From: Puia sp.
Lineage (GTDB): Bacteria; Bacteroidota; Bacteroidia; Chitinophagales; Chitinophagaceae
NCBI GenBank assembly: GCA_035545935.1
Contig: DASZXP010000227.1
Span: 655 to 64,654 of the forward strand
Direction of reading: 5' to 3'
DNA: 64,000 nt
The translations under genes were made by a program, and so were the position numbers. The notes under the pieces are model-generated. The model was not told the DNA's origin, searched no databases, and saw nothing but the letters and a program-made list of their open reading frames with translations. Positions 4,292 to 63,728 of the stretch are shown here, piece by piece; position 1 is the stretch's first letter; every line of letters begins with the position of its first letter.

Positions 4292-4308
4292 ACGGACCGG
4301 AGGTCCGT
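4292..4308. repeat. REP-like 17-bp hairpin copy
   Basis: ACGGACC-GGA-GGTCCGT, intergenic. Confidence 0.75.
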
Positions 4309-4354
4309 CGTCTAAATACAATTCAGGTATTCACAAACTATTAATCTTTTTGAC

Positions 4355-4726
4355 ATGAAAAAGAAAATTGTCCTTTGGACAGTATCCATCTTTTGCGTGC
4401 TGGCGTCAGCATTGGCTATACACATCTACATCGTCACACGCCCCAAACCCGTGGACGCCCACACGCGGGCCATGGCCCGCATCGATATCCGGCAATCTAT
4501 CACGCAGGCGGATGCCGACAGGATCACCACCTGGCTCTATCGCCAAAAAGGGGTAGACCGTGTGCTGGTCAACCCCGTCAGCTCCATCGTGGTATTTACT
4601 TTTTTTCCCATCAAGACCAACGCCAGCCAGGTAGTCAGCGACTTCAGGACGGATCTGCCCTATAAGGCGCAACGCTTCCTGCCCACCGAAGCCGCGGTGC
4701 GGAGCGGATGCCCGCTCGGATATTAG
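4355..4726 (+). CDS. Membrane-anchored hypothetical protein, HMA-like fold suspected
   Basis: 123 aa with an N-terminal TM helix, a beta-alpha-beta pattern (ARIDI...ADRITTWL.RQKGVDRVLVN) and C-terminal SGCPLGY. A-rich start context. Confidence 0.6.
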   Translation: MKKKIVLWTVSIFCVLASALAIHIYIVTRPKPVDAHTRAMARIDIRQSITQADADRITTWLYRQKGVDRVLVNPVSSIVVFTFFPIKTNASQVVSDFRTDLPYKAQRFLPTEAAVRSGCPLGY

Positions 4727-4730
4727 CCCA

Positions 4731-4747
4731 ACGAGCCACAGACCCGT
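4731..4747. repeat. Degenerate REP-like hairpin copy
   Basis: ACGAGCC-ACA-GACCCGT inside an outer CCA/TGG stem. Confidence 0.5.
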
Positions 4748-4782
4748 TGGACGTACATTTTTACAAACACAAAAATTGAAAT

Positions 4783-5343
4783 ATGCAAATCAGAAAGAAC
4801 TTAGCAATGCTAACAGCCGCCCTTGGGCTCACAGCCACCGTATTCATAGCGCAGTCCTGCAGCAAAAGCAAGTCGCCTGCCAAACAGACGCTCTATGACT
4901 CCCTGGGCGGAACGGCCATGGTAGCCGACCCTGCCAATTCGGGTCAGATGATCGAGAAGGGGAGACTGGGACTTCGTTCCGTAGTGGACAGCGCCATCTT
5001 TGTCATTGCCGTGGACAGCAAGATCAATAAGTATTTCCAGACACTGCTGACGGAGGTGGGGAACAGTAACTTCACGGGATTCAACGCCCTCAGCAAGAAC
5101 CTCACCGACTTCTTCTGTGTGGCCACTGGAGCCCGGCATTTTACCTACTCGGGAAAGAACATGCATGACGCCCATGATCCCGCCACCAACTCCCGGATGA
5201 ATGGAAAGGTGGACAGCGACGATTTCGACCAGTTTGTGGCTGACATAGTGGTAGCTGCCAAAAAGAACGGCCTGTCGGACCAGCTGATCGGCCAGGTGGG
5301 GGTAGTGATCTATTCCGTCAAAGGTGTAGTGGTTCAGATGTAA
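4783..5343 (+). CDS. Group I truncated (2/2) haemoglobin, lipoprotein
   Basis: TLYDSLGG, YSGKNMHDAH (proximal His F8) and DDFDQFV motifs; signal peptide ending AQSC. Confidence 0.8.
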   Translation: MQIRKNLAMLTAALGLTATVFIAQSCSKSKSPAKQTLYDSLGGTAMVADPANSGQMIEKGRLGLRSVVDSAIFVIAVDSKINKYFQTLLTEVGNSNFTGFNALSKNLTDFFCVATGARHFTYSGKNMHDAHDPATNSRMNGKVDSDDFDQFVADIVVAAKKNGLSDQLIGQVGVVIYSVKGVVVQM

Positions 5344-5360
5344 ATTTCCCGTGATAGACG

Positions 5361-5388
5361 AAACCCTGCCGAAAGGCGGGGTTTTTTT
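5361..5388 (+). terminator. Intrinsic terminator after the globin gene
   Basis: AAACCCTGCC-GAAA-GGCGGGGTTT running into a T tract. Confidence 0.85.
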
Positions 5389-5536
5389 ATTTTCCCCCAT
5401 GGCCGGCCGCATCTCGGCATATCCCGGTATGGCCCCTGACAAACAGCCCGTTACGTCCCTGCAAAAATGGCATATCCATTCCGGCACCCTACCCGGCACT
5501 TTAACAAATCTGTAAAAATGACCTGCTTTGATGCTT

Positions 5537-5560
5537 TGGTACAAAATTCGCCTAACTTCG
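5537..5560 (+). promoter_or_regulatory. groESL promoter region: sigma54-like -24/-12 and sigma70-like -7
   Basis: TGGTACAAAATTCGC has GG-N10-GC spacing (5538-5551), followed by TAACTTCG (5553-5560), a one-mismatch TAnnTTTG. Confidence 0.4.
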
Positions 5561-5618
5561 CCGTCCGAACTTTTCATCGGACAATCTTTTTCAAAAAAAC
5601 CAATAAAATAAGACGACT

Positions 5619-5900
5619 ATGGGCAAAAAGTTAAACGTTACCCCGCTTGCTGATAGGGTAATAGTGAAGCCAGCTCCCGCTGAAGAAAAAACTGCCGGTG
5701 GCATTATCATTCCTGACACAGCCAAGGAAAAACCGCAGCGCGGTACGGTTGTGGCCGCAGGTCCTGGCAAGAAAGACGAGCCGGTGACGGTGAAGATCGG
5801 TGACACCGTCCTCTATGGCAAATATGCCGGTACGGAGATCCAGATCGAAGGCGACGACTTCCTGATCATGAGGGAGTCCGACATTCTTGCTATCGTTTAA
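5619..5900 (+). CDS. groES: Co-chaperonin GroES
   Basis: [24 protein letters not shown] and ESDILAIV motifs. Confidence 0.98.
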
Positions 5901-5911
5901 TTTATTACCGA

Positions 5912-5940
5912 ACGGACCAACGGTCCGTCGGCCGAAGGCC
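5912..5940. repeat. REP-like hairpin plus GAA-loop mini-hairpin between groES and groEL
   Basis: ACGGACC-AAC-GGTCCGT followed by GGCC-GAA-GGCC. Confidence 0.75.
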
Positions 5941-5997
5941 AATCACAAATATTTTTAAACATCACTCTCCGAAAAGGAGAGCTCAATCGAAATAATC

Positions 5998-7635
5998 ATG
6001 GCAAAACAACTTTTCTTCGATATCGAAGCCCGCAACAGAATGAAGAAGGGCGTTGATACCCTGGCAAATGCTGTTAAGGTTACATTAGGTCCCAAAGGAC
6101 GTAACGTAGTATTGGAAAAGAAATTCGGCGCTCCTTCCGTAACGAAGGACGGCGTCACTGTAGCAAAAGAAATAGAGCTGGAAGATCCCATCGAGAACAT
6201 GGGCGCCCAGATGGTGAAGGAAGTCGCTTCCAAGACGGCCGACATCGCCGGTGACGGTACTACTACCGCTACCGTGCTGGCACAAGCCATCATCAGCGAA
6301 GGGCTGAAGAACGTAGCGGCAGGCGCCAATCCCATGGACCTGAAGCGCGGCATCGACAAGGCTGTCGAAAAAGTAGTGGCTAACCTCAGCAGCCAGTCCC
6401 AGACCATCGGCAACGACAAGAACAAGATCGAGCAGGTAGCATCCATCTCCGCCAACAACGACAACGCCATCGGCAAGCTCATCGCACAGGCTTTTGGCAA
6501 GGTAGGCAAGGAAGGCGTTATCACCGTCGAAGAAGCAAAAGGCACCGACACTACCGTTGACGTAGTAGAAGGTATGCAATTCGACAGAGGATATCTCTCC
6601 GCCTATTTCGTTACCAACAGCGAAAAGATGGAAGCCGAGCTGCAGAATCCCTATATTCTTATCTATGACAAAAAGATCTCCGCTATGAAGGACATCCTTC
6701 ATATCCTGGAGAAAGTAGCGCAGAGCGGCCGTCCGCTGCTCATCATCGCGGAAGACCTCGAAGGCGAAGCGCTGGCTACCCTGGTAGTAAACAAGCTGCG
6801 CGGTACGATCAAGGTGGCTGCTGTAAAGGCTCCCGGCTTTGGCGATCGTCGCAAGGAAATGCTCCAGGACATCGCTATCCTCACAAAGGGCATCGTTATC
6901 AGCGAAGAACAGGGTTACAAGCTGGAAGGCGCCGACCTGAACTATCTGGGATCCGCTGCCAGCGTCACCATCGATAAGGACAACACTACCATCGTAGGCG
7001 GCAAGGGCAAAAAGGATGACATCGTTGCACGTGTCAACCAGATCAAAGCTCAGATCGAGACCACTACTTCCGACTACGATAAGGAAAAATTACAGGAACG
7101 TCTGGCTAAGCTCAGCGGCGGTGTAGCTGTACTGTATGTAGGTGCTGCCACCGAAGTAGAGATGAAGGAAAAGAAGGACCGCGTAGACGACGCCCTGCAT
7201 GCCACCCGCGCAGCAGTAGAAGAAGGTATCGTACCCGGCGGTGGTGTAGCATACATCCGCGCCATCGAATCCCTGGAAAAGCTGAAAGGCGCCAACGAAG
7301 ACGAGACCACCGGTATCGCTATCGTAAAACGCGCTATCGAAGAGCCTCTGCGCCAGATCGTGGTGAACAGCGGCATCGAAGGCAGCATCGTGGTACAGAA
7401 AGTAAAGGAAGGTAAAGCCGACTTTGGCTTCAATGCCCGCACCGAAGTATACGAAAATCTTCTGAAGGCCGGTGTCATCGACCCCACCAAGGTAACCCGC
7501 ATCGCGCTGGAAAATGCAGCTTCTATCGCAGGCATGGTATTGACCACTGAATGTGTCATCGCCGACAAGCCTAAGAAAGAAGAAGGTCATGCTCATCCGG
7601 GCGGCGCTCCTGGTATGGGTGGAATGGACTATTAG
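5998..7635 (+). CDS. groEL: Chaperonin GroEL
   Basis: [29 protein letters not shown] and a GGM tail. Confidence 0.99.
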
Positions 7636-7766
7636 TGGACCACAGGTCCACTGGCTGTAACCGCAAGGTTACCACCGAGGAGGAGCGTGTCAAAGCAGCT
7701 CCGACGAAGGTCTGAGTCATTAGCGGAATTCGCCGAGGGGCGAAATTCCCGATATGGCCCGAAGGC
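7635..7766 (+). repeat. Mosaic of 5-6 short hairpins in the groEL 3' UTR
   Basis: GTGGACC-ACA-GGTCCAC; GTAACC-GCAA-GGTTAC; GGAGC..GCTCC; GAC-GAAG-GTC; GGAATTCGCC-GAGG-GGCG(A)AATTCC; GCC-CGAA-GGC. Confidence 0.65.
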
Positions 7767-7795
7767 GAATTGACAATCAACTCCTTCCAAATAAT

Positions 7796-7824
7796 AAAAA
7801 GGCCTGGCATTGCCGGGCCTTTTT
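7796..7824 (+). terminator. Intrinsic (bidirectional-looking) terminator of groESL
   Basis: AAAAAGGCCTGGCA-T-TGCCGGGCCTTTTT. Confidence 0.85.
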
Positions 7825-7873
7825 GTTGTCCGCCTCCGTTGCCGTGGCAAAGTACCTCCGGCGGACAACAAAA
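7821..7873. repeat. 53-bp element with perfect 14-bp inverted ends
   Basis: TTTTGTTGTCCGCC (7821-7834) and GGCGGACAACAAAA (7860-7873) flank a 25-nt spacer containing TTGCC-GT-GGCAA. Confidence 0.7.
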
Positions 7874-7981
7874 TCTTATGATAGGGTTACCTCGATCTGT
7901 AATGTTTTTTTTTAAGGTCTCGGTGAATGCTTCGCATTTCGGCCAGCCGATCTGTGATCGGCTTTGCTACGTATATATAAT

Positions 7982-8716
7982 ATGCCCCTGTCGAAGAAAA
8001 TAGCGTCGATCGTAGCCCTGATCGTCATATGGGAAGCCGCCTGCGTAAAGCACAACGGCAACCCCGTACTGGCGACTTCTCCGCTACAGGATACCATCCT
8101 CCCGACCCCTCCCGGCGACACCCTGACCTACCTGGCCCTGGGTGACAGCTATACCATCGGCCAGTCCGTGAGCGAATATGACCGCTATCCCGTACAGGTC
8201 GTACGGAATCTCCGAAGCGCCGGCTTCTATTATAGGGATCCCGACATCATTGCCGTGACAGGATGGACCACAGGCGATCTGCTGAATGCCACCCCCGACA
8301 CGGCCCCTCATCCGCCATATCATGCCGTCACCCTCCTCATCGGCGTGAACAACCAATACCAGTTCCGCACCCAATCGGAATATCGTACCCAGTTCACGGA
8401 ACTGTTGCAACGGTCCATTCGCCTGGCCGGCGACAATCCCAGCCATGTCCTTGTCCTCTCCATCCCCGACTATTCCGTAACCCCCTTTGCAAAAGGCCGT
8501 GACAGAGCCTATATCGCCGCACAGATCGACAGCTTCAACGCCATCAATAAAGAGATAGCCGCGAACTATCACACCGCCTGGCTCGATGTCACAGGCGAAA
8601 GCCGCAAAGCCGCCAACGACCCTTCGCTCATAGCCGGCGACAGCCTGCATTTTTCCGGTAAAGAATATGCTATCTGGGCAGAGATGATGACGCCCATAAT
8701 GAAGACGATGCACTAG
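7982..8716 (+). CDS. SGNH/GDSL hydrolase family protein, probably exported
   Basis: Blocks LALGDSYT, AVTGWTT, LIGVNN and GDSLH. Likely start MPLSKKIASIVALIVIWEAAC (track start 7964). Confidence 0.9.
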   Translation: MPLSKKIASIVALIVIWEAACVKHNGNPVLATSPLQDTILPTPPGDTLTYLALGDSYTIGQSVSEYDRYPVQVVRNLRSAGFYYRDPDIIAVTGWTTGDLLNATPDTAPHPPYHAVTLLIGVNNQYQFRTQSEYRTQFTELLQRSIRLAGDNPSHVLVLSIPDYSVTPFAKGRDRAYIAAQIDSFNAINKEIAANYHTAWLDVTGESRKAANDPSLIAGDSLHFSGKEYAIWAEMMTPIMKTMH

Positions 8717-10257: not shown

Positions 10258-10293
10258 AATGGGAGTGGAATGCTAAAAGTAATGTGTTAGAAA

Positions 10294-10380
10294 AGGCTTC
10301 GTCACGAGAGCTTCGCTCGTATCCTTCGTCGGCTCCAACACTGTTGGACCTTTCCTCGGATACCTGGGACCTACTGTCCC
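10294..10380 (-). repeat. Hairpin mosaic related to the groEL 3' element
   Basis: Minus strand reads GGGAC-AGTAG-GTCCC...CCGAGGA-[20 nt with TCCAAC-AGT-GTTGGA]-CCGACGAAGG...ACGAGC-GAA-GCTCTCGT. Confidence 0.6.
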
Positions 10381-10411
10381 TGATCGAACTGGCTCCTGGC
10401 CGTCGCCGGGA

Positions 10412-26039: not shown

Positions 26040-26047
26040 TATCTTTG
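26040..26047 (+). promoter_or_regulatory. -7 element (TATCTTTG) of the SRP RNA gene
   Basis: Exact TAnnTTTG match 5 nt before the RNA 5' stem. Confidence 0.8.
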
Positions 26048-26052
26048 TGCCC

Positions 26053-26147
26053 GGCAAGTCTTATACGACCAGCTCCCGCTGAACCCCCCCAGGGCCGGAA
26101 GGCAGCAAGGGTAAGTGGTCGCAGCGGTGCGATGTAAGTAACTTGCC
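26053..26147 (+). ncRNA. ffs: Signal recognition particle RNA (4.5S, small type)
   Basis: Terminal stem GGCAAGT/ACTTGCC and conserved helix 8 CAGGGCC-GGAA-GGCAGCA. Promoter directly upstream and a T tract directly downstream. Confidence 0.93.
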
Positions 26148-26211
26148 TTTTTTTATTGACGAACCCCCGGTTTGTCGGCCAATACTCCCGAAAAAGATAA
26201 ATTTTAAAACA

Positions 26212-26873: not shown

Positions 26874-27722
26874 CTACGCCGGACGGGCCAACGGCCCGTC
26901 GGCTGGAACCGAAGGTCTCCGGACATAAGATTTATTGTGCAGGCTATGGGTGCCCGACGATGAGGCGCTTATAGCCTGTAATGTTATATCCCTCCCCAAA
27001 TCTACGACCTCTCCGATAATGATGATGGATGGATGCGTCAGCTGATGCTCCGATGCCATGGACGGCAGCTCTTCGACGGCGCCCCGCACCATTTTTTCTT
27101 CCGGCAAAGAAGCATAATGGATAATAGCCGCCGGCGTATGGCTCATTCCTTCTTCCCGATAGATAGCCGCTATTTCCTTTAGCTTTTTCATACCCATATA
27201 GACCACGATCGTGGCCTTGCTTTTCATGGCAAGCCGCAGGTCGTTGGATAGTTCTCCGTCCTTCTTTGTTCCCGTAATGACCCAGATGCTTTCGCTGAGG
27301 TGACGATGGGTGAGGGGGATGGCCGAAAGCCCTGCCGCCTGCATGCTGCTGATACCGGGGATATAGGATACGGCAATGCCCTGCTGACGGGCAAACAGCG
27401 CTTCTTCAAAGCCCCGCCCAAAGATAAAGGGATCGCCTCCTTTTAGCCGGACGACCCGGCCGGCGCTAAAGGCCTTTTCTTTTATCAACGCATGGATGGT
27501 CTCCTGGGGCGTATAATCTCCATAGGGCAGCTTGCCTACATATATTTTCTCGCAGGACGGAGAAGCCCAGTCCAAAAGAGCGGTATTGCACAGATTGTCA
27601 TACAGGATCACGGGCGCCTCCTGCAGGACCCTGCAGGCCTTAAGCGTGATAAGCTCGGGATCGCCCGGACCGGCGCCAACCAATACCAGTTCCGGAGGAC
27701 TATGCTGCGAAATTACGTACAT
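26874..27722 (-). CDS. cobA: Uroporphyrinogen-III C-methyltransferase (siroheme synthesis)
   Basis: LVGAGPGDPELIT, VVRLKGGDPFIFGRG.EE and IPLTHR motifs. Confidence 0.93.
   Translation of the reverse strand: MYVISQHSPPELVLVGAGPGDPELITLKACRVLQEAPVILYDNLCNTALLDWASPSCEKIYVGKLPYGDYTPQETIHALIKEKAFSAGRVVRLKGGDPFIFGRGFEEALFARQQGIAVSYIPGISSMQAAGLSAIPLTHRHLSESIWVITGTKKDGELSNDLRLAMKSKATIVVYMGMKKLKEIAAIYREEGMSHTPAAIIHYASLPEEKMVRGAVEELPSMASEHQLTHPSIIIIGEVVDLGRDITLQAISASSSGTHSLHNKSYVRRPSVPADGPLARPA
26883..26925. repeat. REP-like hairpin with GAA mini-hairpin and CGGACAT tail
   Basis: ACGGGCC-AAC-GGCCCGT...ACC-GAA-GGT...CCGGACAT, inside the 3' tail of cobA. Confidence 0.7.
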
Positions 27723-39800: not shown

Positions 39801-40370
39801 TTCGATGGAATGCTCTATGGCTTTACCGCAGCAGCGGAACAGCAGGCCGGCATATTCGCCGGCTATCTCAGTGGGGACATCAGCAACTATTACAAGGGCA
39901 CGACTTCGATGAGCATCATCAAGATCCATGGATTCGACCTTTGCTGTCTTGGTATTCCCGACAGACCGAACGAACATGAATATGAAGAGATCGTCTTCAT
40001 CGACCTGGCCCGCCGTTATTACAAGAAATGTATCGTCCACCAGGACAGGCTCGTAGGAGCTATCCTCGTCGGGGACAAAGACGAATTCCTGGAATTCAAA
40101 GAACTCATCTCCGGCCGGATCGAGCTGAACGAACGGCGTCTTCAGCTGCTGCGCAGCGGGAAAAGGTCGGAACCCGTACTGGGCAAGCTGGTCTGCAGCT
40201 GTAACAACGTGGGCAGCGGCAACATCGAGAACAAAATTGCATCAGGCTGTACGGAGCTGGCGCAGATCTGCGCCGCTACGGGAGCTGGCACCGGTTGCGG
40301 CTCCTGCCGGCCCGAGGTAAAAAAGATATTGGAAAACAAACTACAGGAGGCGGCCATAGGTGTTTCGTAA
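36870..40370 (+). CDS. Assimilatory Mo-bisMGD nitrate reductase fused to an FAD/NADH oxidoreductase and a BFD [2Fe-2S] domain
   Basis: CCYCGVGC...LCSKG (4Fe-4S), SRLCMSSA (Mo ligand), GQPNAMGGRE, LTTGRIRDQWHT, then two GxG motifs and CSCNNV...GCGSC. Confidence 0.92.
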   Translation: MRKAHSFSTTCCYCGVGCGITVHKDKKGDITVQGDAAYPVNKGMLCSKGLNLHYTVNDRSDRLLYPQMRYNKQMPLQRVSWETAIDRAAAVFRSLVQKYGPDSVAFYISGQCLTEEYYVINKLMKGFIGSNNVDSNSRLCMSSAVAAYKKALGEDSVPLNYSDIEEADCFFITGANPAWCHPILWRRIEAHKAANPHVRIIVSDPRQTDTAALADCYLPIRPGTDITLHHAFGRILIEEGNIDPNFIKDHTEGFAAYKEAAFQHSIEESASLCGISEMDIRRAAGYIADAKGFISMWTMGLNQSVNGVDKILSLINLHLATGHIGKPGSGPFSLTGQPNAMGGREVGGLANLLPAHMDLSNPVHRDKLQQFWNGVPISPAPGLTATEIFEALEKGKLKAIWIIGTNPLISLPDVRQAEAALKKAKFVVVQEISNKPETLTYADLVLPAAGWTEKEGTMTNSERRISYLHKIVDPPGEALPDADIICRLARKMGFPGFDFPDAAAIYKEYARLTKGSSIDISDLSHEALREQRSVQWPRTKDGPTATPFHDLRFSTPSGRAQFHAVPDTPSSEMPDADFPLVLTTGRIRDQWHTMTKTGKVNKLKQHIAQAFLEIHPEDARPLGIADNDLVLVSSGRGEARVKARYSLSIRKGVVFMPMHWGKVLGNDLNRANNLTNNLVDPVSKEPDFKYSAVRVVKYRKPKERIVIIGAGAGAFGFVQSYRQLNKEDEIVIFSKENFPFYNRVQLPDYISGTQDWEQLIKMTDEEEPLYNIRLHKGVSIETIDREEKYVVDSRGVTTYFDKLLLATGSRAALPKNVPFLEGIFTMRSRTDADRFKQQLPAGGHVVIVGGGLLGLEMAASLREINIRVSVIHRSSRFLDRQLDVLASQLLHEEIIDQGCDVYYSDEVQLFYGHPRLTGIRLKSGRMIDCDALIFAIGTVPNTELAVAAGLHCQRGVIVNEYMQTSDPNIYAVGEIAEFDGMLYGFTAAAEQQAGIFAGYLSGDISNYYKGTTSMSIIKIHGFDLCCLGIPDRPNEHEYEEIVFIDLARRYYKKCIVHQDRLVGAILVGDKDEFLEFKELISGRIELNERRLQLLRSGKRSEPVLGKLVCSCNNVGSGNIENKIASGCTELAQICAATGAGTGCGSCRPEVKKILENKLQEAAIGVS

Positions 40371-41829
40371 GAACTATACGGTCAAGATCAATCTTCCCGG
40401 CGGCATCGTCGCTCCGGGGGAACTGTATGCCATTGTAGAGGCGGCTGAACGGGCAAGGGTTTCAGACATGCAGCTGGGCACACGCCAGCAGCTGTTTTGC
40501 AAGGTGACGGATAAATACGGACCCGATTTTTTAAAGGCGCTGCAGGAAGCCGGTGTTTCCTTCGAAGCCAACGAGGACAGACATCCCAACATCGTCAGCT
40601 CCTATGTCACGGAAGGGATCTTTACCACCCAAAGCTGGGTCAGCGAGGGACTCTACAAGGATATCCTATCCGCCTTCGACTTCAAACCCCGCCTGAAGAT
40701 CAATCTGGTGGAAAAAAGCCAATCCTTTGTACCCTTCTTCACCGGCAATATCAACTTTATCAGCTCCGACATCGGCAACTACTGGTACCTCTACATACGG
40801 ATGCCCCAGACCACGCAGATCCATCCCTGGAAAGACCTCGTCTGTTCCGAAGATATCCCGCGTATCAGCCGGATCATCGAAGAGCTGATACTCCAGGGGA
40901 AACCGTTCCCGGGAGATGAACTGTACGCCGCTGTCCTTCCCCATGGCCCTTTTGCCACACAGCCGGTGAGAGCAGCGTTGCAATGGCCTGTCTTCGACCT
41001 CCCTTATTACGAAGGTTTCGCCCGATGGAAGAACAAAATATGGCTCGGCATCTACCGTAGAGAAGAGCTCTTCCCCGTCGCTTTTCTAAAGGACATTTGC
41101 CTTATCTGCCTGGAGACCCGTATCGGACAGCTGTATACCACGCCATGGAAATCCCTGATCATAAAGGGCATCGGGGAAAGTCACCGGGCATTATGGGAAT
41201 ACGTCATGGGGAAATACCGTATCAACCTCCGGCACGCCGGCAATGAGCTGAACTGGCAGGTAGAAGACATGAATGAAGAAGGCTTGCGGCTCAAGCGGTA
41301 CCTGGTACGCCAGCTCGATCTGGAAGATGTCCGTACGGAAGGGTTATGCTTTGCCATCAAGACCCGACCGAAGTCAGGCCTCTCGGGCTCCGTCATCATT
41401 CGCAAACAGACGGGAGGACGCGCCGACCAGCGGAAACTGCTGGACAGATATGATATTTTGCATACACCCGATTTCAATGCCAACTCAAAAGAGTTCATCC
41501 TCTATCGGGAAGGCCTGGAAAAAGAAAACCTCTTTGTCTACCTGGTCTCGCTATGTAAATCCTTTTATGAACAACAAAGCGGGAGGGAGCCCGCCCCTCT
41601 CCAAAGGCCCTTTGGAGGCATCGATACCTCCTCCGGGAATGATAAGAATGCGACGGTCTTCCAATGCCGGCACTGTCTTACGCTGTATGACGAACAATAC
41701 GGCGACCCGGACGCAGGCGAACCTCCCGGACGCCCCTTCGAACAGACGGCTCCCGGCTATGCCTGTCCTGTCTGCGGCAGCGGTAAAGAGGACTTCCAAC
41801 CCGTCGAAAAAACGCAGTTTATGGGCTGA
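40360..41829 (+). CDS. NiR/SiR ferredoxin-like half-domain protein with C-terminal rubredoxin
   Basis: GTG start; KINLPGGIV..GEL..I...A.......LGTRQQL and CRHC...YDEQYGDP...CPVC. Confidence 0.8.
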   Translation: MFRKNYTVKINLPGGIVAPGELYAIVEAAERARVSDMQLGTRQQLFCKVTDKYGPDFLKALQEAGVSFEANEDRHPNIVSSYVTEGIFTTQSWVSEGLYKDILSAFDFKPRLKINLVEKSQSFVPFFTGNINFISSDIGNYWYLYIRMPQTTQIHPWKDLVCSEDIPRISRIIEELILQGKPFPGDELYAAVLPHGPFATQPVRAALQWPVFDLPYYEGFARWKNKIWLGIYRREELFPVAFLKDICLICLETRIGQLYTTPWKSLIIKGIGESHRALWEYVMGKYRINLRHAGNELNWQVEDMNEEGLRLKRYLVRQLDLEDVRTEGLCFAIKTRPKSGLSGSVIIRKQTGGRADQRKLLDRYDILHTPDFNANSKEFILYREGLEKENLFVYLVSLCKSFYEQQSGREPAPLQRPFGGIDTSSGNDKNATVFQCRHCLTLYDEQYGDPDAGEPPGRPFEQTAPGYACPVCGSGKEDFQPVEKTQFMG

Positions 41830-41835
41830 CTATCG

Positions 41836-41843
41836 TAACTTTG
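41836..41843 (+). promoter_or_regulatory. Internal -7 element (TAACTTTG) 5 nt before the moaA ATG
   Basis: Exact TAnnTTTG match in a 19-nt intergenic gap. Confidence 0.6.
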
Positions 41844-41848
41844 AACAC

Positions 41849-42805
41849 ATGTCCGTTATACACGATCGATATGGAAGGACTTTCAGGACCTTACGGCTGA
41901 GCCTGCTCAACCATTGCAACCTGGGTTGTGTCTATTGTGTGGCTGGTGACAATGAGATCAAGGCGGCCAATGCCACCCATTCGTCCCTCCCCGTATCCAG
42001 CCTTCTCGACATTATCAGACGGCTGCACAGACACCTGGACCTTTCCACCATTCGCCTTACGGGAGGCGAGCCGCTTTTATACCATGGCCTGACGGGCCTC
42101 ATCGGCGGTATTCGTGAAATGGGCATAACGTCGATCAAGCTGACGACAAATGGATTCCTGCTGGAACGTCTGGCGATGCCGATGAAACAGGCTGGTATGC
42201 GATCCATCAATGTGTCGCTGGATGCCGTCGATGAAGATGTTTTCTACAAGATGAGCAGACGACACGCGGTGCAACGGGTCATCCAGGGCATCGATAAGGC
42301 ATTGGAGGCGGGATTGGAGGTAAAGATCAACAGCGTCATCATGAAGGGGATCAATGACGGACAGATCCTGCCTTTGCTGGAATTTGCTTTTTCCCGCGGT
42401 TGTCGTATCCGGCTCCTGGAAGTGATGGCCATGGGACATTTGCACGACCAGGCGGATCGATACCTCTTTCCACAGGAAGAAATGCTGGCGACGATAGCCG
42501 GCCGCTATACATTCGAGCCGTTGGGCCGGACCAGATCGGCTACGGCAAGCTACTGGCAGACGGATAAGGGACATCAATTTGGGATCATCGCCAACGAGAC
42601 GGCGCCTTTTTGCAGCGACTGCGACAGGCTGAGACTGGACAGCAGCGGACATATCTACGGATGTCTCAGCAGCAATCATCCCATCTTGCTGGATGAGAAC
42701 GAAAACGAAGAGACATGGACAACGAAGCTACAGCAGGCGCTTCTACAGAAACAGACCCTGCGATTCACGGGCAGCGATCTCAGCATGCTGCATATTGGAG
42801 GATAG
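41849..42805 (+). CDS. moaA: GTP 3',8-cyclase (radical SAM)
   Basis: Start MSVIHDRYGR (the track's 41273 extension is a shadow); CNLGCVYC, RLTGGEP, CSDC-x13-C and a terminal GG. Confidence 0.93.
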   Translation: MSVIHDRYGRTFRTLRLSLLNHCNLGCVYCVAGDNEIKAANATHSSLPVSSLLDIIRRLHRHLDLSTIRLTGGEPLLYHGLTGLIGGIREMGITSIKLTTNGFLLERLAMPMKQAGMRSINVSLDAVDEDVFYKMSRRHAVQRVIQGIDKALEAGLEVKINSVIMKGINDGQILPLLEFAFSRGCRIRLLEVMAMGHLHDQADRYLFPQEEMLATIAGRYTFEPLGRTRSATASYWQTDKGHQFGIIANETAPFCSDCDRLRLDSSGHIYGCLSSNHPILLDENENEETWTTKLQQALLQKQTLRFTGSDLSMLHIGG

Positions 42806-42851: not shown

Positions 42852-42890
42852 GCTAATGATGGCGCTTCGCGCAACGGACCTGTGGTCTGT
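42852..42890 (-). repeat. REP-like hairpin mosaic between moaA and moaD
   Basis: Minus strand ACAGACC-ACA-GGTCCGT-T-GCGC-GAA-GCGC-CA-TCATTAGC shares GACCACAGGTCC and TCATTAGC with the groEL 3' element. Confidence 0.65.
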
Positions 42891-42923
42891 TTAATCGCGG
42901 CCGGGCCGCACAAAAGAACGAAC

Positions 42924-45740: not shown

Positions 45741-45792
45741 ATTTCTTCTTTTTTTATATAATCGATTCCCGGCAACGAACCAGGAGCTCATT

Positions 45793-45810
45793 AATGTCCG
45801 AAAAACGGGT
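45793..45810 (+). repeat. 18-bp direct repeat, copy 1
   Basis: AATGTCCGAAAAACGGGT, identical to 47205-47222. Confidence 0.75.
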
Positions 45811-45850
45811 ATTGGAAAATGTTACCCCTTTTTCGGAAAAATCTAATATC

Positions 45851-45880
45851 TGTCCTTCGGACAATGAACCGAAGGTTCAT
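45851..45880. repeat. Two adjacent REP-like hairpins
   Basis: TGTCC-TTC-GGACA and ATGAACC-GAA-GGTTCAT. Confidence 0.65.
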
Positions 45881-45966
45881 TAAGGGAGAGCAAACGTACA
45901 AGAATATGATGAAATTGGGCCTCCGATGCCGGTTTTTTTTTATGTTTGTATCCCAACTGCTTTTGA

Positions 45967-46557
45967 ATGTTAGAGGCCTTAAAACAATACATATCCGGCT
46001 TTGTTTCGTTGACGAACGAGGAGTTTGCGCTGCTGGCGAATAAGCTGGTGATCCGCAACTTTGACAAACGGGAGCAGCTGCTCGGGGCCGGCGAGGTGGA
46101 AATCTATCTGAATTTCGTCGTAAAAGGCCTGGTGCGCAAATACTTTTACAAGGGTCGGACGGAGATCGTTACACAAATAGCGAAGGAAGGAGAGTTCGTC
46201 AATTCCTCCGCCTCTTTTTTATCCGGCTCCCCTTCGCCCTACCTGGTGGAGACGCTGGAACCTTCGACCTTTTTGTCCATTACCCGCGACCAGCTGGAAA
46301 AGCTCTACGAGGACAACCCTCGCATAGAAAGGCTGGGCCGTATCACCATTACACATTTATTTCTGCAACGGGAAGAATGGGAGCATGAATGTCTCAGGCT
46401 GGACACCCGGGAAAGGTTCCTTCGATTTGTAGAAAATAATCCGGACCTGATGCAAAGGGTCCCGCAGAAATACCTGGCCTCATACCTGAATATGAAGCCG
46501 GAGACCTTCAGTCGTCTGAAACACCTGTTGCAACGACCGCGGACCGCCACCCGGTAG
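45967..46557 (+). CDS. Crp/Fnr family protein (short Bacteroidota type)
   Basis: cNMP-binding fold (FVVKGLVRKY) and PQKYLASYLNMKPETFSRLK. TTG start. Confidence 0.88.
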   Translation: MLEALKQYISGFVSLTNEEFALLANKLVIRNFDKREQLLGAGEVEIYLNFVVKGLVRKYFYKGRTEIVTQIAKEGEFVNSSASFLSGSPSPYLVETLEPSTFLSITRDQLEKLYEDNPRIERLGRITITHLFLQREEWEHECLRLDTRERFLRFVENNPDLMQRVPQKYLASYLNMKPETFSRLKHLLQRPRTATR

Positions 46558-46558
46558 A

Positions 46559-46575
46559 ACGAGCCGGAGGCTCGT
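46559..46575. repeat. REP-like 17-bp hairpin copy
   Basis: ACGAGCC-GGA-GGCTCGT preceded by GTAGA; identical to 63700-63716. Confidence 0.8.
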
Positions 46576-46601
46576 CGAAGGACATACATAAATGACTATA
46601 C

Positions 46602-52664: not shown

Positions 52665-52696
52665 CCGAACGGGCCGAGGCTCGTTTTCGGACATTA
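52665..52696. repeat. REP-like hairpin with CGGACATT tail
   Basis: CCGA-ACGGGCC-GA-GGCTCGT-TTTCGGACATT downstream of glgP. Confidence 0.7.
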
Positions 52697-57965: not shown

Positions 57966-58018
57966 AATTAATGAGGTTTTAATGGTGATCCAATCAAATA
58001 AATAGGGGAGGGGAGACG

Positions 58019-58354
58019 TTAGCCCCGGGGAGGTTGAAAGATGGAAGTAGTGCTCCCGGCAGCGATCATGGATGTCCCGTGAGGTCTGCCCGATAGGAGC
58101 AGGCCGACAGGGTGGCCGGGAGAAGGAAGCGTAAAGGCCATAAAGACCTCATCAGGTCTGAACTTATAAGCGGAGTTTTCCGTGTTATGCTGTTTATCGC
58201 CGGTAGTGGCTTCCGCGGAAGATTTTTGACAGTCGCAGGTAACTTCCTGAATGGTAGACAACGGTGTGATCTGACAATGCTGATAATTCAAGACCCTGCT
58301 GTATTGGAATAACAGCCAGGATAAGAATAATAGTATAGAAAAGGTCTTTTTCAG
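58019..58354 (-). CDS. Small ORF ending IFQPPRG, candidate leader/arrest peptide (non-ATG start)
   Basis: The frame stays open 21 codons upstream of the track's 58291 start, adding LKKTFSILLFLSWLLFQYSRV. Contains C-x10-C-x-C. A CTG start at 58354 is assumed, 5 nt after TATATTAG. Confidence 0.55.
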   Translation of the reverse strand: MKKTFSILLFLSWLLFQYSRVLNYQHCQITPLSTIQEVTCDCQKSSAEATTGDKQHNTENSAYKFRPDEVFMAFTLPSPGHPVGLLLSGRPHGTSMIAAGSTTSIFQPPRG

Positions 58355-58443
58355 GTGTACTAATATAACATTACTTTACCAGTTTGTTGAATTATTTTTA
58401 GGGCGTAGCACAAACCATGAATTTGAAAAATAAAATATCCATT

Positions 58444-59193: not shown

Positions 59194-59201
59194 GGATAAC
59201 G

Positions 59202-59243
59202 TAACTTTGTCGGGCCCCGTAACATCGTTACGGGGCTTTTTTT
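59202..59243 (+). terminator. Intrinsic terminator of the DUF4197 gene, preceded by a -7 element
   Basis: GCCCCGTAAC-ATC-GTTACGGGGC-T7 (59214-59243), TAACTTTG at 59202-59209 and the next ATG at 59244. Confidence 0.7.
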
Positions 59244-60188
59244 ATGGAAAAACTATCGATGTTCCGCAACAGGCTGACCAAAGTCTTCCGCCATGTCTCC
59301 AAGCTGGCCGGACGGCAGTCCGTCACCTGCTATCGCGTCTATGATCATGACCTGCCCGAATTCCCTTTTTGTATCGAGCTGTACGAGGATAAGGTATACC
59401 TGGCGGAATACCGCCGCCGTCATGGCATGACGGATGAAGAACATGAGGCATGGCTGGAATCCTGTCTGCCGGTGATCACCGAAGTATTGGGCAGGCCGGA
59501 TGACGCCATCTACTGGCGGCAGCGTCAGCGCAAGGCCGGCAGACAAGGGCAATACGAGAAACTGGCCAGCGAGCAGGAATTCTTTGTGGCGCAGGAAGCA
59601 GGACTTTCCTTCAAGGTCAACCTGACGGATTATCTCGACACCGGACTCTTTCTGGATCATCGCATCACCCGAGGCATGGTCCGCTCCGAATCGAAGGATA
59701 AAAAGGTCCTCAACCTTTTTTGCTACACAGGGTCTTTCTCCGTCTATGCCGCGGCGGGAGGCGCCACAGGAGTGGACTCCGTGGACCTTTCCAAGACCTA
59801 TCTCAACTGGGCGGAAGAGAACATGCGGCTGAACCATTCTCTCACCGACAAGACCAGCAGTAATTTTATCCATGCCGATGTCAAACAATGGCTCGACGAC
59901 GCGCCCGCCGGGTATTACGACCTGGTGGTCATGGACCCGCCCACCTTTAGCAACAGCAAGAGGATGAAGGACTTTCTGGATATACAACGTGACCATGCGG
60001 AACTGCTGAACAAGACCCTGCATGCCATGAAGCCGGGAGGCGTTCTGTATTTCAGCACCAATTCCCGAAAATTCCAATTGGAGACGGAGAAGATAGCCGC
60101 CTCATCCATAAGGGATATCACCAATGCCACCACTCCCTTCGACTTCCAGGGCAAGCTGTTCCGTTGGTGTTATAAGCTCATCAAATAG
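59244..60188 (+). CDS. Stand-alone RlmK/RlmI-like SAM-dependent rRNA methyltransferase
   Basis: YRVYDHDLPE, TGLFLDHR, LNLFCYTGSFSV and DPPTFSNSKRM motifs. Confidence 0.88.
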   Translation: MEKLSMFRNRLTKVFRHVSKLAGRQSVTCYRVYDHDLPEFPFCIELYEDKVYLAEYRRRHGMTDEEHEAWLESCLPVITEVLGRPDDAIYWRQRQRKAGRQGQYEKLASEQEFFVAQEAGLSFKVNLTDYLDTGLFLDHRITRGMVRSESKDKKVLNLFCYTGSFSVYAAAGGATGVDSVDLSKTYLNWAEENMRLNHSLTDKTSSNFIHADVKQWLDDAPAGYYDLVVMDPPTFSNSKRMKDFLDIQRDHAELLNKTLHAMKPGGVLYFSTNSRKFQLETEKIAASSIRDITNATTPFDFQGKLFRWCYKLIK

Positions 60189-60196
60189 CGGGATGA

Positions 60197-61690
60197 TCAG
60201 TTCAGGGGAATGTCTCTTTTTAGCATGCTGTCCCTGTTGGCCATATCCCAGGCCGTATAGAAGACCAAACGCGCTCTTTTTACCATCAGGTCATAATTGA
60301 TCTTATCCGGCGTGTCCGTGGGACGATGATAATCCTTGTGGATCCCGTCGAAATAAAAGATGATGGGTACACCCTTGCGTGCGAAATTATAATGATCGCT
60401 GCGGTAATAGATCCTTTCCGGGTCGGATGGATCATTGAACTTATAATCCAGTTCGAGCCGGGTATGTTGGGTATTTTGCGACTCGCTGATGGGTTTAAGG
60501 TCCGAACTCAGCTTGTCATCGCCGACGACATACACATAATTGGTCGAATCGCCTTTCTTACGATTGGGATCGATGCGTCCGATCATATCTATGTTCAGGT
60601 CCACCGTCGTCTGTGCGAGCGGGTAGGCGGGATGTTCGGAATAATATTCGGAACCCCAGAGCCCTTTTTCCTCTCCCGAATTGGCCAGGAAAAGAATGCT
60701 GCGGCGGGGCCCTTTTCCCTCCGCCTTGGCCTTGGCAAAGGCTTTCGCCAGCTGCAAAATGCTCACCGTGCCGGAGCCGTCGTCGTCCGCACCATAGAAG
60801 ATGATGCTGTCCCTTTTGCCCAGGTGATCGTAATGCGCGGATATGACCACATACTGGTCTTTCAGGTCCGTGCCCTCCAGCAACCCCAGGACATCGCTGC
60901 TTTGTCCCATGCTGATCGCTTTGTTGAACTCCAGCACGACATCCGCCTGGTAGGCCTTGGGAGCTAAATTCCCCGACCGGGCGGCTGTATAATCATCACC
61001 CATAATAGCGGCTGCTATCTTTTCGGAAACAAAAAAACTATTGGGAAGAATGCTCTTTGTAAAACCGTCCAGGTAAACGGAACCCCTGCCCGAATAAGCT
61101 CTTTGAGGGAACCCTGTCTCGATGATCAGAAGGGCCGCGGCGCCATTTTTCTGCGCCGCCTCCAGCTTGATAAAGGAACCTCTCCTGCCGGACGGGATGT
61201 GACTGCCTGCCGGCGCGCCATTCAATACCAGCACGATCTTTCCGTGTGTATCCAGCCCCTTGTAATCATCCCGGGCGGAATCGCTGATACCATATCCCGC
61301 GAATACCACTTCGCCGCTATACAAGGTAGCCGTATGATTGATGCTGGTGATGACGGAAAGGTCCTCGGAAAGACGGAACACCTGTCCATTCACCTGGACA
61401 GAAGTTTTTATCAACGAATCCTGAAATAAGGGATAGTACAGCTGATAACTTGTCTTGTTGCCCGGCAGCAGACCCATGCTGCGGAACTGCTCTTCGATGT
61501 AGGCGGCTGCCTTTCTTTGCCCTTCCGTTCCCGTCTCGCGTCCTTCGAACTCCTTGCTGGCCACCTGGTACAGATGTGTGCGCAGATCCCCGGCCGTGAT
61601 GACATCGGCAAAAGCATCGGGGCCGGATTTTTGCTGTGCATTAGCCAGACATGCAATGAACAAAGGCAGTAAAAAGGACAGACGTACCAT
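60197..61690 (-). CDS. M28 family metallopeptidase with PA domain
   Basis: SAHYDHLG, GADDDGSG, GEEKGLWGS, NIDMIGR and RSDHYNF motifs; start MVRLSFLL. Confidence 0.92.
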   Translation of the reverse strand: MVRLSFLLPLFIACLANAQQKSGPDAFADVITAGDLRTHLYQVASKEFEGRETGTEGQRKAAAYIEEQFRSMGLLPGNKTSYQLYYPLFQDSLIKTSVQVNGQVFRLSEDLSVITSINHTATLYSGEVVFAGYGISDSARDDYKGLDTHGKIVLVLNGAPAGSHIPSGRRGSFIKLEAAQKNGAAALLIIETGFPQRAYSGRGSVYLDGFTKSILPNSFFVSEKIAAAIMGDDYTAARSGNLAPKAYQADVVLEFNKAISMGQSSDVLGLLEGTDLKDQYVVISAHYDHLGKRDSIIFYGADDDGSGTVSILQLAKAFAKAKAEGKGPRRSILFLANSGEEKGLWGSEYYSEHPAYPLAQTTVDLNIDMIGRIDPNRKKGDSTNYVYVVGDDKLSSDLKPISESQNTQHTRLELDYKFNDPSDPERIYYRSDHYNFARKGVPIIFYFDGIHKDYHRPTDTPDKINYDLMVKRARLVFYTAWDMANRDSMLKRDIPLN

Positions 61691-61790
61691 AAAGCATTTA
61701 TTTAAGAGGCAAGACCAAATATAAAGTATATTCATTTATTGCCGCTGAAACTGTGAATAGAGATCAGGCGACGCATGCCTATGCCGATCC

Positions 61791-63677
61791 CTAGCTTTCA
61801 GCCTCGCTGAGCTCCAGCCAACGCAGCTCCTTTTCGTCCAGCAGCTGTTCGATCTCGCCGATGCGTATGGAAAGTCTTTGTAGTTCGTCGAAAGCCGCGG
61901 CGCCGCTGTTGAGCTTTTCGGTGACCTGCTTTTTCTCTTCCGTCAGCTGGGCGATCTCCTTGTCGAGACCTTCCAGCTCTCTTTTTTCTTTGTAGGATAA
62001 CCTTTTTTTCTCCGTGGAGGCCGCGGAGGATACAGGGGCCGTCGATGGGGTAGCGGCCTTGACGGCGGGGGCCGGAGCTTCTTCCTCCTCGCGCCGGGCA
62101 ATACGGTATTGCGTATAGTTGCCGGGGAAATCCCGGACGACGCCATCGCCTTCCAGCACCAGCAGATGATCTACCAGCCTGTCCATAAAATACCGGTCAT
62201 GGCTGACGATCAGCAGACAACCCTGGTATTCGCTCAGGAAATTCTCCAACACGCCCAACGTGGGCAGGTCCAGATCATTGGTAGGCTCGTCCAGTACCAG
62301 GAAATTGGGATTGCGAAAGAGTATGGACAGGAGATGAAGCCTTCTTTTTTCTCCTCCGCTGAGCTTGGAAATATACGTATACTGCTGCTCGGGAGGGAAG
62401 AGGAAAAGATTGAGAAACTGGGATGCGCTGAGCGAGCCTCCTCCCGCCAGGGGGAACACCTCGGCGATGTTCTTTACATACTCTATCACCCGCTGATCCT
62501 CCTTTATGACAAGACCCTGCTGGGAATAATTGCCGAAGATCACCGTCTCTCCGATATTGACCTTTCCGCTGTCGGGCTGTTCGATACCTTGCAGGATATT
62601 GATGAACGTGGATTTGCCGACGCCATTCTTTCCGACTACACCCAGGCGTTCGCCTCTCTTGAAGGTATAGTCGAACCCTTTGAGTATTATTTTATCGCCA
62701 AAGCTTTTATATACTTTTTTCAGCTCGGCCACCTTCCCACCCAGCCGGTTCATTTTCACCTGGAGCTCCACCTGCTGGTCCTCTATCCGTTGTTTGGCCT
62801 TTGCCTCCACAGCATAGAAATTATCCTGTCTGCTCTTGCTCTTTGTCGTCCTGGCCTTGGGCTGCTTGCGCATCCATTCCAGCTCCTTGCGATAGGTATT
62901 GCGCGCCTTCTCGATACTGGACGTCTCGTTCTCCAGGCGGGCCGCTTTTTTCTCCAGATAATTTTCGTAATCGCCCTTATAGGTATACAGGTTGCTGCCA
63001 TCCATTTCCCAAACCTCATTGCACACCGCATCCAGGAAATACCGGTCGTGCGTCACCAATAGGAGGGTGACCTTTTCCTGGTTGAGATAATGCTCCAGCC
63101 ATTCCACCATTTCTACATCCAGATGATTGGTAGGCTCATCCATGATAAGGAGCACATGCTTGTGCTCGAAGCCGATGTCGATAAGGGTCTTGGCGAGGGC
63201 TACGCGTTTGCGTTGACCGCCGGAAAGAGTGCCCGCGATCTGCTGCAGATGGTGGATATTCAGCTTACCCAGTATCTGTTTTACCCTGGCGTCGAAATCC
63301 CAGGCGCCCAGCTCATCCATTTTTACGATGGCAGCCGTCAGCTTGTCGATATCCTCCTCTTCGCTGACCTTTTCGTATTCCCGGATGGCATTGATGATGG
63401 GGTGGTTATGATGAAAGATATTGTCCAGAATGGACCTGTCTTCCATGAACACGGGCTCCTGCTCGAACAATGCCACGGTGACGTCCTTGTGTATCCAGAC
63501 AGTGCCGCTATCGGCCGTCTCGGTGGATGCCAATATCTTAAGCAGAGTGGATTTGCCGCTGCCATTCCTGGCCACCAGCGCGATCTTGTCCCCTTCCTCT
63601 ATGTGAAAGCTAATGTCCCCGAAAAGGGGCTTTATGCCGTACGATTTGCTCAGACCTTCGACAGAAACATAATGCAT
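61791..63677 (-). CDS. ABC-F ATPase (Uup-like)
   Basis: Two ABC domains (ARNGSGKST and GKNGVGKST; LSGG; MDEPTN and LDEPTN), no TM helices, C-terminal KKRLSYKEKRE. Start MHYVSVEGL. Confidence 0.93.
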   Translation of the reverse strand: MHYVSVEGLSKSYGIKPLFGDISFHIEEGDKIALVARNGSGKSTLLKILASTETADSGTVWIHKDVTVALFEQEPVFMEDRSILDNIFHHNHPIINAIREYEKVSEEEDIDKLTAAIVKMDELGAWDFDARVKQILGKLNIHHLQQIAGTLSGGQRKRVALAKTLIDIGFEHKHVLLIMDEPTNHLDVEMVEWLEHYLNQEKVTLLLVTHDRYFLDAVCNEVWEMDGSNLYTYKGDYENYLEKKAARLENETSSIEKARNTYRKELEWMRKQPKARTTKSKSRQDNFYAVEAKAKQRIEDQQVELQVKMNRLGGKVAELKKVYKSFGDKIILKGFDYTFKRGERLGVVGKNGVGKSTFINILQGIEQPDSGKVNIGETVIFGNYSQQGLVIKEDQRVIEYVKNIAEVFPLAGGGSLSASQFLNLFLFPPEQQYTYISKLSGGEKRRLHLLSILFRNPNFLVLDEPTNDLDLPTLGVLENFLSEYQGCLLIVSHDRYFMDRLVDHLLVLEGDGVVRDFPGNYTQYRIARREEEEAPAPAVKAATPSTAPVSSAASTEKKRLSYKEKRELEGLDKEIAQLTEEKKQVTEKLNSGAAAFDELQRLSIRIGEIEQLLDEKELRWLELSEAES

Positions 63678-63681
63678 CCCG

Positions 63682-63689
63682 CAAAGATA
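63682..63689 (-). promoter_or_regulatory. -7 element (TATCTTTG) 4 nt before the ABC-F ATG
   Basis: Exact TAnnTTTG match. Confidence 0.65.
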
Positions 63690-63699
63690 CGTTTTCAAG

Positions 63700-63728
63700 A
63701 CGAGCCGGAGGCTCGTTGTCCGGACATT
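63700..63728. repeat. REP-like hairpin plus TGTCCGGACATT module
   Basis: ACGAGCC-GGA-GGCTCGT-TGTCCGGACATT. Confidence 0.8.

Follow-up and report, generated by a model that had tools for sequence, protein, structure and literature searches.

Which kind of genetic element scatters the same short palindrome between the genes of a soil bacterium? The question is raised by a 64,000-nt stretch of a Puia sp. genome (contig C227, positions 655-64654 of assembly G000; hereafter, the window), in which an initial annotation, made from the letters alone, had described about 11 copies of a 17-bp palindrome with compensatory stem changes and had proposed either a family like the repetitive extragenic palindromic (REP) sequences and bacterial interspersed mosaic elements (BIMEs), missed by standard annotation, or a structured-RNA module. 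We found that the palindrome is only one module, designated H1, of a directional, modular element of 40-150 nt, that the family is limited to one subclade of the genus within the soil Chitinophagaceae, and that the elements move or are at any rate turned over as blocks. The palindromes are probably the terminal hairpin of a lineage-specific, non-autonomous and mobile family of REP-like hairpin DNA.

The assembly is a Chitinophagaceae metagenome-assembled genome (MAG) of 7.11 Mb in 260 contigs with 51.9% G+C, obtained from a soil metagenome, and the nearest relatives of the GroEL encoded in the window and of the RAYT-like protein described below were found in Chitinophagaceae MAGs, several of which bear the name Puia sp. 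Genes were called with a crude home-made caller, by which 90% of the genome is coding and about 9% intergenic.

The palindrome as part of a directional element

By direct inspection, the copies listed for the window all stand at their coordinates, and nine of the palindromes are good hairpins with a 7-bp stem, a 3-nt loop and a CC-NNN-GG core; the listed copy at 4731 is decayed, that at 10304 belongs to another module, and one at 26159 had been missed. Five match ACGRRCC-N3-GGYYCGT perfectly (4292, 5912, 26883, 46559 and 63700) and four are variants (42874, with one G.T pair; 52669, with a 2-nt loop and one G.T pair; 7635, GTGGACC; and 45864, ATGAACC). When up to three mismatches were allowed, the window contained 10 matches against 2.5 expected, a number reached in 0/100 shuffles.

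The same stem dominates the genome. Genome-wide, ACGAACC leads the perfect 7-bp hairpin stems in frequency, and its relatives ACGGACC, ACGAGCC and ACGGGCC come next. There are 108 matches to ACGRRCC-N(2-6)-GGYYCGT, and in 99 the loop is 3 nt long. Reversed patterns served as controls for the pattern counts; the strict H1 pattern, for which counts ranged from 104 to 108, had 0 reversed matches genome-wide against about 105 forward ones, and H1 with TGTCC as the next five bases gave 73 matches and 0 in the control.

Alignment of the flanks revealed a fixed order of foot C-N-R-A, H1, H2, tail (A)GACATTAG and an optional H3. The foot was C-N-R-A in 48/91 copies against 6/92 at a control position, with C in 68%, R in 83% and A in 85% of copies at the respective positions. 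H1 has an 8-bp stem and a triloop, most commonly GGA (29/92 copies), and H2 is GTCC-GAA-GGAC or GGCC-GAA-GGCC. The GAA-loop mini-hairpin and the GGACAT tail already noticed behind several palindromes exist and correspond to modules H2 and tail. H3, found in about half of the copies, is a long hairpin of 10-13 bp with the loop CTAnnTTT, whose stem comes in several versions unrelated in sequence. The H2 loop can also hold an inserted module of two hairpins (…GGTTAC-C-GACCGAGGA-GGAGC…GCTCC-GACGAAGG), as exemplified by the element downstream of groEL at 7635-7780. Each module exceeded its reversed control: 194 vs 27 for H2+tail cores (one mismatch or fewer), 133 vs 28 for H3 hairpins, and 48 vs 3 for a related family of "extended" modules.

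The GTAG foot that had been reported at 46559 is present as letters but is not a feature of the family, as GT[AG]G occurred within 8 nt upstream in 0/91 oriented copies. The copies are also singletons. Only two neighbour pairs lay within 150 nt, both in direct orientation, with four more within 400 nt, and neither inverted REPIN dimers nor alternating BIME clusters were seen among the neighbour pairs examined genome-wide.

Pairing is conserved over sequence

Elements were picked by H2+tail alone and the upstream H1 region was then inspected; the pattern counts with reversed controls and a pair-count test on these anchor-selected copies took the place of a covariance model. A hairpin of at least 7 bp abutted H2 in 120/189 anchor-selected cores, against 4 at a position 100 nt off and 2 after shuffling. 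These hairpins use 46 different H1 stems, including a second large subfamily, GRRCCGCN-GGA-NGCGGYYC. In an alignment of 150 anchor-selected elements, 83.4% of the cells were paired vs 62.1% in shuffled alignments (0/500 as high) and 30-47% when the structure was slid, and the covariation score was 0.507 vs 0.167, again with 0/500 shuffles as high; since copies share descent, these figures count sequences and not events.

The compensatory stem changes first noticed in the window hold at this scale. The two R/Y positions of the stem carry A-T (51/61) as well as G-C (26/19) pairs, two-sided change was seen at 8/8 H1 pairs, and one pair of H2 alternates between U-A (93) and G-C (42). A double change from T-A to C-G was also found in one spacer, between the orthologous H3 hairpins of G000 and of a sister species, G023. 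The predicted folds are stable (z = -3 to -4.5). On the strand that reads H1-H2-tail, the ACGRRCC subfamily had 23 G.T and 4 A.C mispairs.

Elements come and go as blocks between sister species

The initial annotation had suggested comparing orthologous spacers in close relatives, and occupancy indeed differs between species. The groES-groEL spacer holds foot, H1 and H2 in G000 only and lacks them in G023, G022, G006 and five or six further relatives. Downstream of groEL, the element is common to G000 and G023, with the 49-nt module present in G000 only, between TGGC and CGAAGG of H2; in more distant relatives the groEL stop codon is directly followed by the terminator, with no element. The 45761-45882 block, to which the alignment gives a length of roughly 122-128 nt, is likewise restricted to G000, and a clean empty site was found in G023, G022 and G006 as well as in a contig, 92% identical, from a second soil-metagenome sample among the Logan contigs, in which no polymorphism within a population was seen.

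Other elements of the window have counterparts in G023. That at 42852..42894 is shared with G023, while the corresponding site holds H2+tail only in G009 and nothing in G022; that at 46555..46585 has a decayed orthologue in G023 and none in G022 or G006; and the G023 orthologue of 52665..52696 differs on both arms at one stem pair. Fifteen further orthologous spacers with about 20 elements were compared: about 12 elements were absent from G023, about 5 were shared and at least 2 were found in G023 only, and H3 was present or absent independently of the rest. Most copies are not conserved between species with 91% groEL identity.

At clean junctions the inserted block begins at the foot or H1 and ends either at the tail or at the outer H3 base, its ends coinciding with hairpin bases. 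Eight clean filled/empty junctions showed neither target-site duplications nor terminal inverted repeats. The empty sites are rich in A/T but have no consensus motif, and CTA(A) already stood at the foot position in 2/7 empty-site junctions, so the foot may partly be target sequence.

The family is confined to one subclade

The strict core pattern was found in nine species of one Puia-like subclade (53, 64, 41, 15, 11, 9, 7, 7 and 3 copies). Counts were 0-1 in the remaining 15 species of the genus and 0 in 16 further families of the order. GroEL is 84-91% identical to that of the window in the nine element-bearing species and 77-78% in element-free species. An exact 23-mer of the element occurred in four Puia-like MAGs only, among 185,579 species genomes.

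Copies lie between unrelated genes

Within G000, 79/104 strict copies lie outside the crude gene calls and 17 of the remaining 25 lie within 100 nt of the end of an open reading frame (ORF), so that over 90% are intergenic or at an intergenic edge, in agreement with the intergenic placement seen in the window. A strict H1 with H2+tail at C56:41530 lies 844 nt into a high-scoring ORF of 869 codons and is maybe a genuine intragenic insertion.

Copies occupy the classes of spacer roughly as expected by length (observed/expected: tandem 71/65, convergent 12/15, divergent 36/39), with 46 sense and 25 antisense copies in tandem spacers. Orientation had no link to local GC skew, a crude proxy for the replication strand (p = 0.75). 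Long-form copies are followed by housekeeping genes that are unrelated to each other, e.g., pheT, leuS, gyrB and thyA, on which ground a common regulon was rejected. Length-proportional placement, unrelated downstream genes, occurrence as singletons and the lack of a skew link argue against terminators or a regulon and fit near-neutral intergenic insertion. A promoter in the H3 loop (TAnnTTT) was also rejected, as its distance to any TTTG, judged by eye, misfits the -33/-7 layout of Bacteroidota.

Downstream of the composite element behind groEL, an intrinsic terminator lies at 7789-7827 (GGCCTGGCA-TTGCCGGGCC followed by a T-run). The presence of a canonical terminator past the element indicates that these bacteria use ordinary terminators and that the element belongs to the groEL 3' untranslated region (UTR). 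In a scan with Rfam 15, only a signal recognition particle (SRP) RNA of the Bacteroidota type (26045-26152) matched at the gathering threshold and nothing matched the elements; at E <= 1, positions 4200-8000 gave only two weak matches, both over the terminator.

The copies in the window are collected in Table 1.

Table 1 Elements and related features in the window.
Position	Strand	Feature	Context
4292..4308	+	Solo H1 ACGGACC-GGA-GGTCCGT, then CGTC; no H2 or tail	Divergent promoter region
4731..4758	+	Decayed copy: two mismatches in the H1 stem; TGGAC..GTACAT H2/tail remnant	
5908..5945	+	Short form: foot CCGA, H1 5912-5928, H2 CGGCC-GAA-GGCC, tail AATCA	groES/groEL spacer
7635..7780	+	Composite element: H1 7635-7651 (GTGGACC-ACA-GGTCCAC); 49-nt two-hairpin module 7656-7704 within H2 loop; tail GTCATTAG 7716-7723; H3 7724-7751; GGCC-CGAA-GGC hairpin to ~7780	Between groEL stop codon and groEL terminator
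10294..10380	-	Array of hairpin + CGAGGA/CGACGAAGG modules ("extended" module family); related, not an H1 copy	
26159..26185	+	H1 ACGAACC-CCC-GGTTTGT (one G.T) and CGGCC..AATAC H2/tail remnant; not in the earlier list	
26879..26929	+	H1 26883-26899; H2 with nested GGAACC-GAA-GGTcTCC hairpin; tail GGACATAAG	Convergent gene pair
42852..42894	-	Reversed element: tail (GCTAATGAT), H2 variant GCGC-TTCG-CGCA, H1 42874-42890	
45761..45882	-	Long form: H1 45864-45880, H2, tail, H3, extra degenerate hairpin	
46555..46585	+	H1 46559-46575; truncated H2/tail CGAAGGACAT	Directly after stop codon (TAG-A)
52665..52696	+	Foot CCGA, H1 with 2-nt loop, TTTCGGACATTA	
63696..63729	+	Foot CAAG, H1 63700-63716, H2 without loop and tail TGTCCGGACATTA	

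The decayed copy at 26159-26185 starts 7 nt past the SRP RNA, beyond its T-run. In the nitrate-assimilation cluster at 40360-42805, two long ORFs on the + strand overlap (40360-41829 and 41273-42805), maybe by a frameshift or a mis-call; the gene caller was unable to retain the two together.

A RAYT-like protein without the catalytic tyrosine

REP sequences are spread by REP-associated tyrosine transposases (RAYTs), and the initial annotation had accordingly suggested looking for such a gene flanked by the hairpins. A RAYT-like HUH gene is indeed encoded in the genome, outside the window, but it lacks the catalytic Tyr and is not consistently flanked by hairpins. G000 has two loci of the Y1 family, on C37 and C86. 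The RAYT-like protein, of 198 aa, is the product of a single-copy gene at C86:22291-22887 (-). Its best profile is that of REP-associated tyrosine transposases (NF047646), matched end-to-end at 66.9 bits, which misses the 80-bit cut-off; its homologues are labelled "REP element-mobilizing transposase RayT" by JGI; and its AlphaFold model (pLDDT 76, pTM 0.78) had the E. coli RAYT-REP complex 4ER8 as the top match, followed by IS200/IS605 transposases. The HuH histidines (HHLH/SHLH) and the metal-binding Asn are retained. None of the 120 closest public homologues, mostly from Puia/Chitinophagaceae MAGs, has Tyr at the catalytic position, whereas distant homologues from Chitinophagales (35-42% identical) keep it in the context [NS]H[LIA]H … WQ … YIH[QND]NP … SS. 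Judged from these alignments, the protein belongs to a Tyr-less RAYT subfamily that is conserved across the clade.

An orthologue or a remnant of the gene was found in 9/9 element-bearing species and in one or two others of the genus. The link between the RAYT-like protein and the elements is suggestive at the sequence level, and the protein is a possible, though doubtful, candidate for the mobilising enzyme.

Directly upstream of the RAYT-like gene lies a tandem paralogue of 178 aa (C86:23018-23554, -) without the HuH and Y motifs, and the pair is kept in all genomes of the subclade. The RAYT-like protein and this dead paralogue are the sole HUH candidates for mobilisation there. The other Y1-family locus, C37:4807-5235 (+), encodes an IS200-like protein of 142 aa (PF01797, 78 bits) with the Y-motif FIEKQEEHH, in which Phe stands at the Tyr position; with this replacement the protein looks domesticated. 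By ORF reading its neighbours are genes of the DAHP-synthase/chorismate-mutase and 3-dehydroquinate-synthase types, with no hairpins around. Neither Y1-family locus is bracketed by elements, and a REPtron was therefore rejected. In G023, tandem arrays of ~20-nt units with CCGAAGG/CCAAAGG occur on C664, downstream of the RAYT-like gene, and on C572; these look like slippage-type expansions of the hairpin modules' own loop-and-spacer motif.

Weighing the explanations

The preferred explanation is a mobile, REP-like hairpin family, whose spread would proceed by a hairpin-recognising mechanism on single-stranded DNA, of the HUH/REP type; copies within operons and 3' UTRs, such as that between groES and groEL, would be co-transcribed passengers that may alter mRNA structure. 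What stood of the proposed REP/BIME-like family are the dispersed, intergenic, paired hairpins, their species-variable insertion and the RAYT-like HUH gene, and what did not are the GTAG foot, the dimers and clusters, a consistent flanking of the RAYT gene and its catalytic Tyr.

Several observations weigh against this explanation, most of them concerning the enzyme. The catalytic Tyr is replaced by His (HIHENP instead of YIH[QN]NP) in 6/6 orthologues and in 111/120 of the closest public homologues, and no further Y1 or RAYT genes were found in eight element-bearing genomes, one of them 100% complete. Homologues with 43-65% identity occur in 24 other Chitinophagaceae genomes, all without elements, and the co-occurrence of gene and element tracks one clade, which amounts to about one evolutionary event. 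On the 5' side of the RAYT-like gene there is one element in G006, two in G023, none in G022 and G021 and a doubtful remnant in G000, and on the 3' side nothing is consistent across the genomes compared. Lineage-specific insertions are younger than the change from Tyr to His, which leaves two possibilities: the RAYT-like protein dispenses with the canonical nucleophile, or the elements are moved by some other activity. The lack of a link to GC skew belongs on the same side, as does the G.T excess, which is weak when all anchor-selected copies and stem positions of the family are counted (24 vs 15) and is alike in sense and antisense copies; we dropped it as a sign of folding on one strand.

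There is a small chance that the conserved Tyr-less HUH protein itself spreads or processes the elements by chemistry other than a 5'-phosphotyrosine intermediate, for example by a hydrolytic nick at the C-N-R-A foot and subsequent copying by host replication or repair.

The structured-RNA alternative holds that the elements are selected RNA modules, such as mRNA 3'-end stabilisers, processing sites or translational insulators, and that their spread is secondary. It is favoured by the copies within transcription units (groES-groEL, and between the groEL stop codon and terminator), by the modest sense excess in tandem spacers, by compensatory changes that keep the pairing of stable folds, and by the report that classical REPs stabilise upstream mRNA (PMC3733652). 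The occurrence of elements in both orientations relative to genes, their high turnover between sister species and the lack of any Rfam match, even at E <= 1, speak against it. About one-third of the tandem-spacer copies are antisense and many copies lie in divergent promoter regions, the neighbours are unrelated housekeeping genes, most copies are not conserved at 91% groEL identity, and G.T and A.C are used equally in sense and antisense copies. No RNA of this organism was found among Logan contigs. We consider selected RNA modules an unlikely origin of the family.

Rather improbable, too, is a family without any dedicated transposase, in which host replication or repair copies the modules by template switching at hairpins or by gene-conversion-like patching. 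What stands against it is that whole elements of 40-130 nt, with a conserved foot and ends that are sharp and reproducible, sit at A/T-rich sites unrelated to one another, a pattern that suits site-specific cleavage and joining better than slippage, and that homology between donor and target is not evident at the junctions. The absence of a catalytically canonical Y1 enzyme and of TnpB from the genomes searched (PF07282 had no match in six genomes) speaks for host copying, as do the nesting of modules in the loops of other modules, the independence of H3 and the CCGAAGG-unit arrays of G023, which point to slippage-type expansion. CGTC-type REPs are reported to be without a dedicated transposase (PMC3733652).

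Miniature inverted-repeat transposable elements (MITEs) derived from a DDE-type insertion sequence are also small, numerous, intergenic and species-variable, and several contigs break at element copies; such an origin is very unlikely, given the junctions without terminal inverted repeats or target-site duplication, the directional build with unlike ends and the fact that no parent insertion sequence with such ends was seen. That the elements are intrinsic transcription terminators, as G+C-rich hairpins often just past stop codons might suggest, is scarcely credible, with no U-tract after H1 in the common orientation, one copy within the groES-groEL operon and another ahead of the true terminator of groEL, no enrichment in convergent spacers, and many copies upstream of genes.

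Discussion

A mobile REP-like family invites comparison with the REP/REPIN-RAYT (TnpA_REP) systems known from E. coli and Pseudomonas (PMC2817692, PMC3116915, PMC3479197). Both consist of short extragenic hairpins in about a hundred copies or more, with compensatory stems, lineage-specific distribution, variable spacer occupancy and no target duplication, and in both the same genomes hold one copy of an HUH gene that has the RAYT fold and is vertically inherited. The family differs from REP/REPIN in its foot, C-N-R-A and not GT[AG]G, in its singletons in place of inverted dimers, in its triloops and 8-bp stems and in its directional array of unlike hairpins, and from REP/REPIN-RAYT systems in a gene without reliable flanking repeats, whose product carries His at the position of the catalytic Tyr.

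In enterobacteria, BIMEs combine inverted REPs alternating with fixed linker motifs, and the BOX elements of Streptococcus pneumoniae are built of modules of 45-59 bp. The present elements resemble both in their mosaic, modular build, with units absent, present or multiplied, and in being intergenic and co-transcribed, but the order foot-H1-H2-tail-H3 is found in neither, and the BOX modules are unrelated in sequence.

The 198-aa protein is closest in kind to subclass 2.6 of TnpA_Y1 (Bertels RAYT group 5; Bertels et al. 2017, PMC5581495) from Bacteroidetes, for which Quentin et al. 2018 (PMC6006769) give the signature NH[LIV]H, WQ, YIH[QN]NP and an SS tail; the motifs of its distant Chitinophagales homologues come close to this signature. 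The 198-aa protein shares with that subclass the length class, the phylum, the WQ motif, the SS tail and the ..IHxNP context. Genes of subclass 2.6 are described by Quentin et al. as flanked by unusual hairpins ("atypical secondary structures") that recur in the genome, with which our hairpins were compared by description only; here, in contrast, Tyr is changed to His across the clade, flanking is inconsistent, and the repeats are resolved in detail down to modules, foot and insertion polymorphism. A CnGA foot is reported for Y1 class 3 in the same source.

Compared by description, the elements are also similar to CGTC-tagged REPs, which according to Di Nocera et al. 2013 (PMC3733652) have stems of 8-9 bp, have no associated transposase known and occur in some Bacteroidetes; CGTC/TGTC directly after H1 is common to both. 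The published repeats carry loops of 4-5 nt, start the stem with two A/T positions, leave the tag unpaired, have a CCA tail and are mostly head-to-head dimers, whereas the elements here have 3-nt loops, TGTC/CGTC as the 5' arm of H2, no CCA tail and occur as singletons. A derivative of IS200/IS605, such as a palindrome-associated transposable element (PATE) or TnpB/omega-RNA ends, was rejected in view of the lack of PF07282 matches in six genomes and of an only IS200-like protein that has Phe, lies in an aro operon and has no hairpins around it. In the literature searched, no repeats of such kind are described for Chitinophagaceae.

The behaviour of the family is thus REP-like, yet by foot, dimers, flanked RAYT and catalytic Tyr, the tests that define GTAG-REP/REPIN, it is not one of them. 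REP-type repeats are well studied in Proteobacteria and barely described in Bacteroidota, and this family offers a clean, recently active example in which modules, ends and empty sites can be read and in which hairpin modules can nest within each other's loops. Since the repeats proliferated after the only RAYT-like enzyme of the lineage had lost its Tyr, REP-like DNA is moved either by this enzyme, working in another way, or by something else; if a Tyr-less HUH protein does act on it, REP-type mobility would gain a new route and the HUH fold a new activity. On the practical side, the repeats fragment the assemblies of these soil MAGs and escape annotation, could serve strain typing, and may perturb the mRNAs of groESL-type operons.

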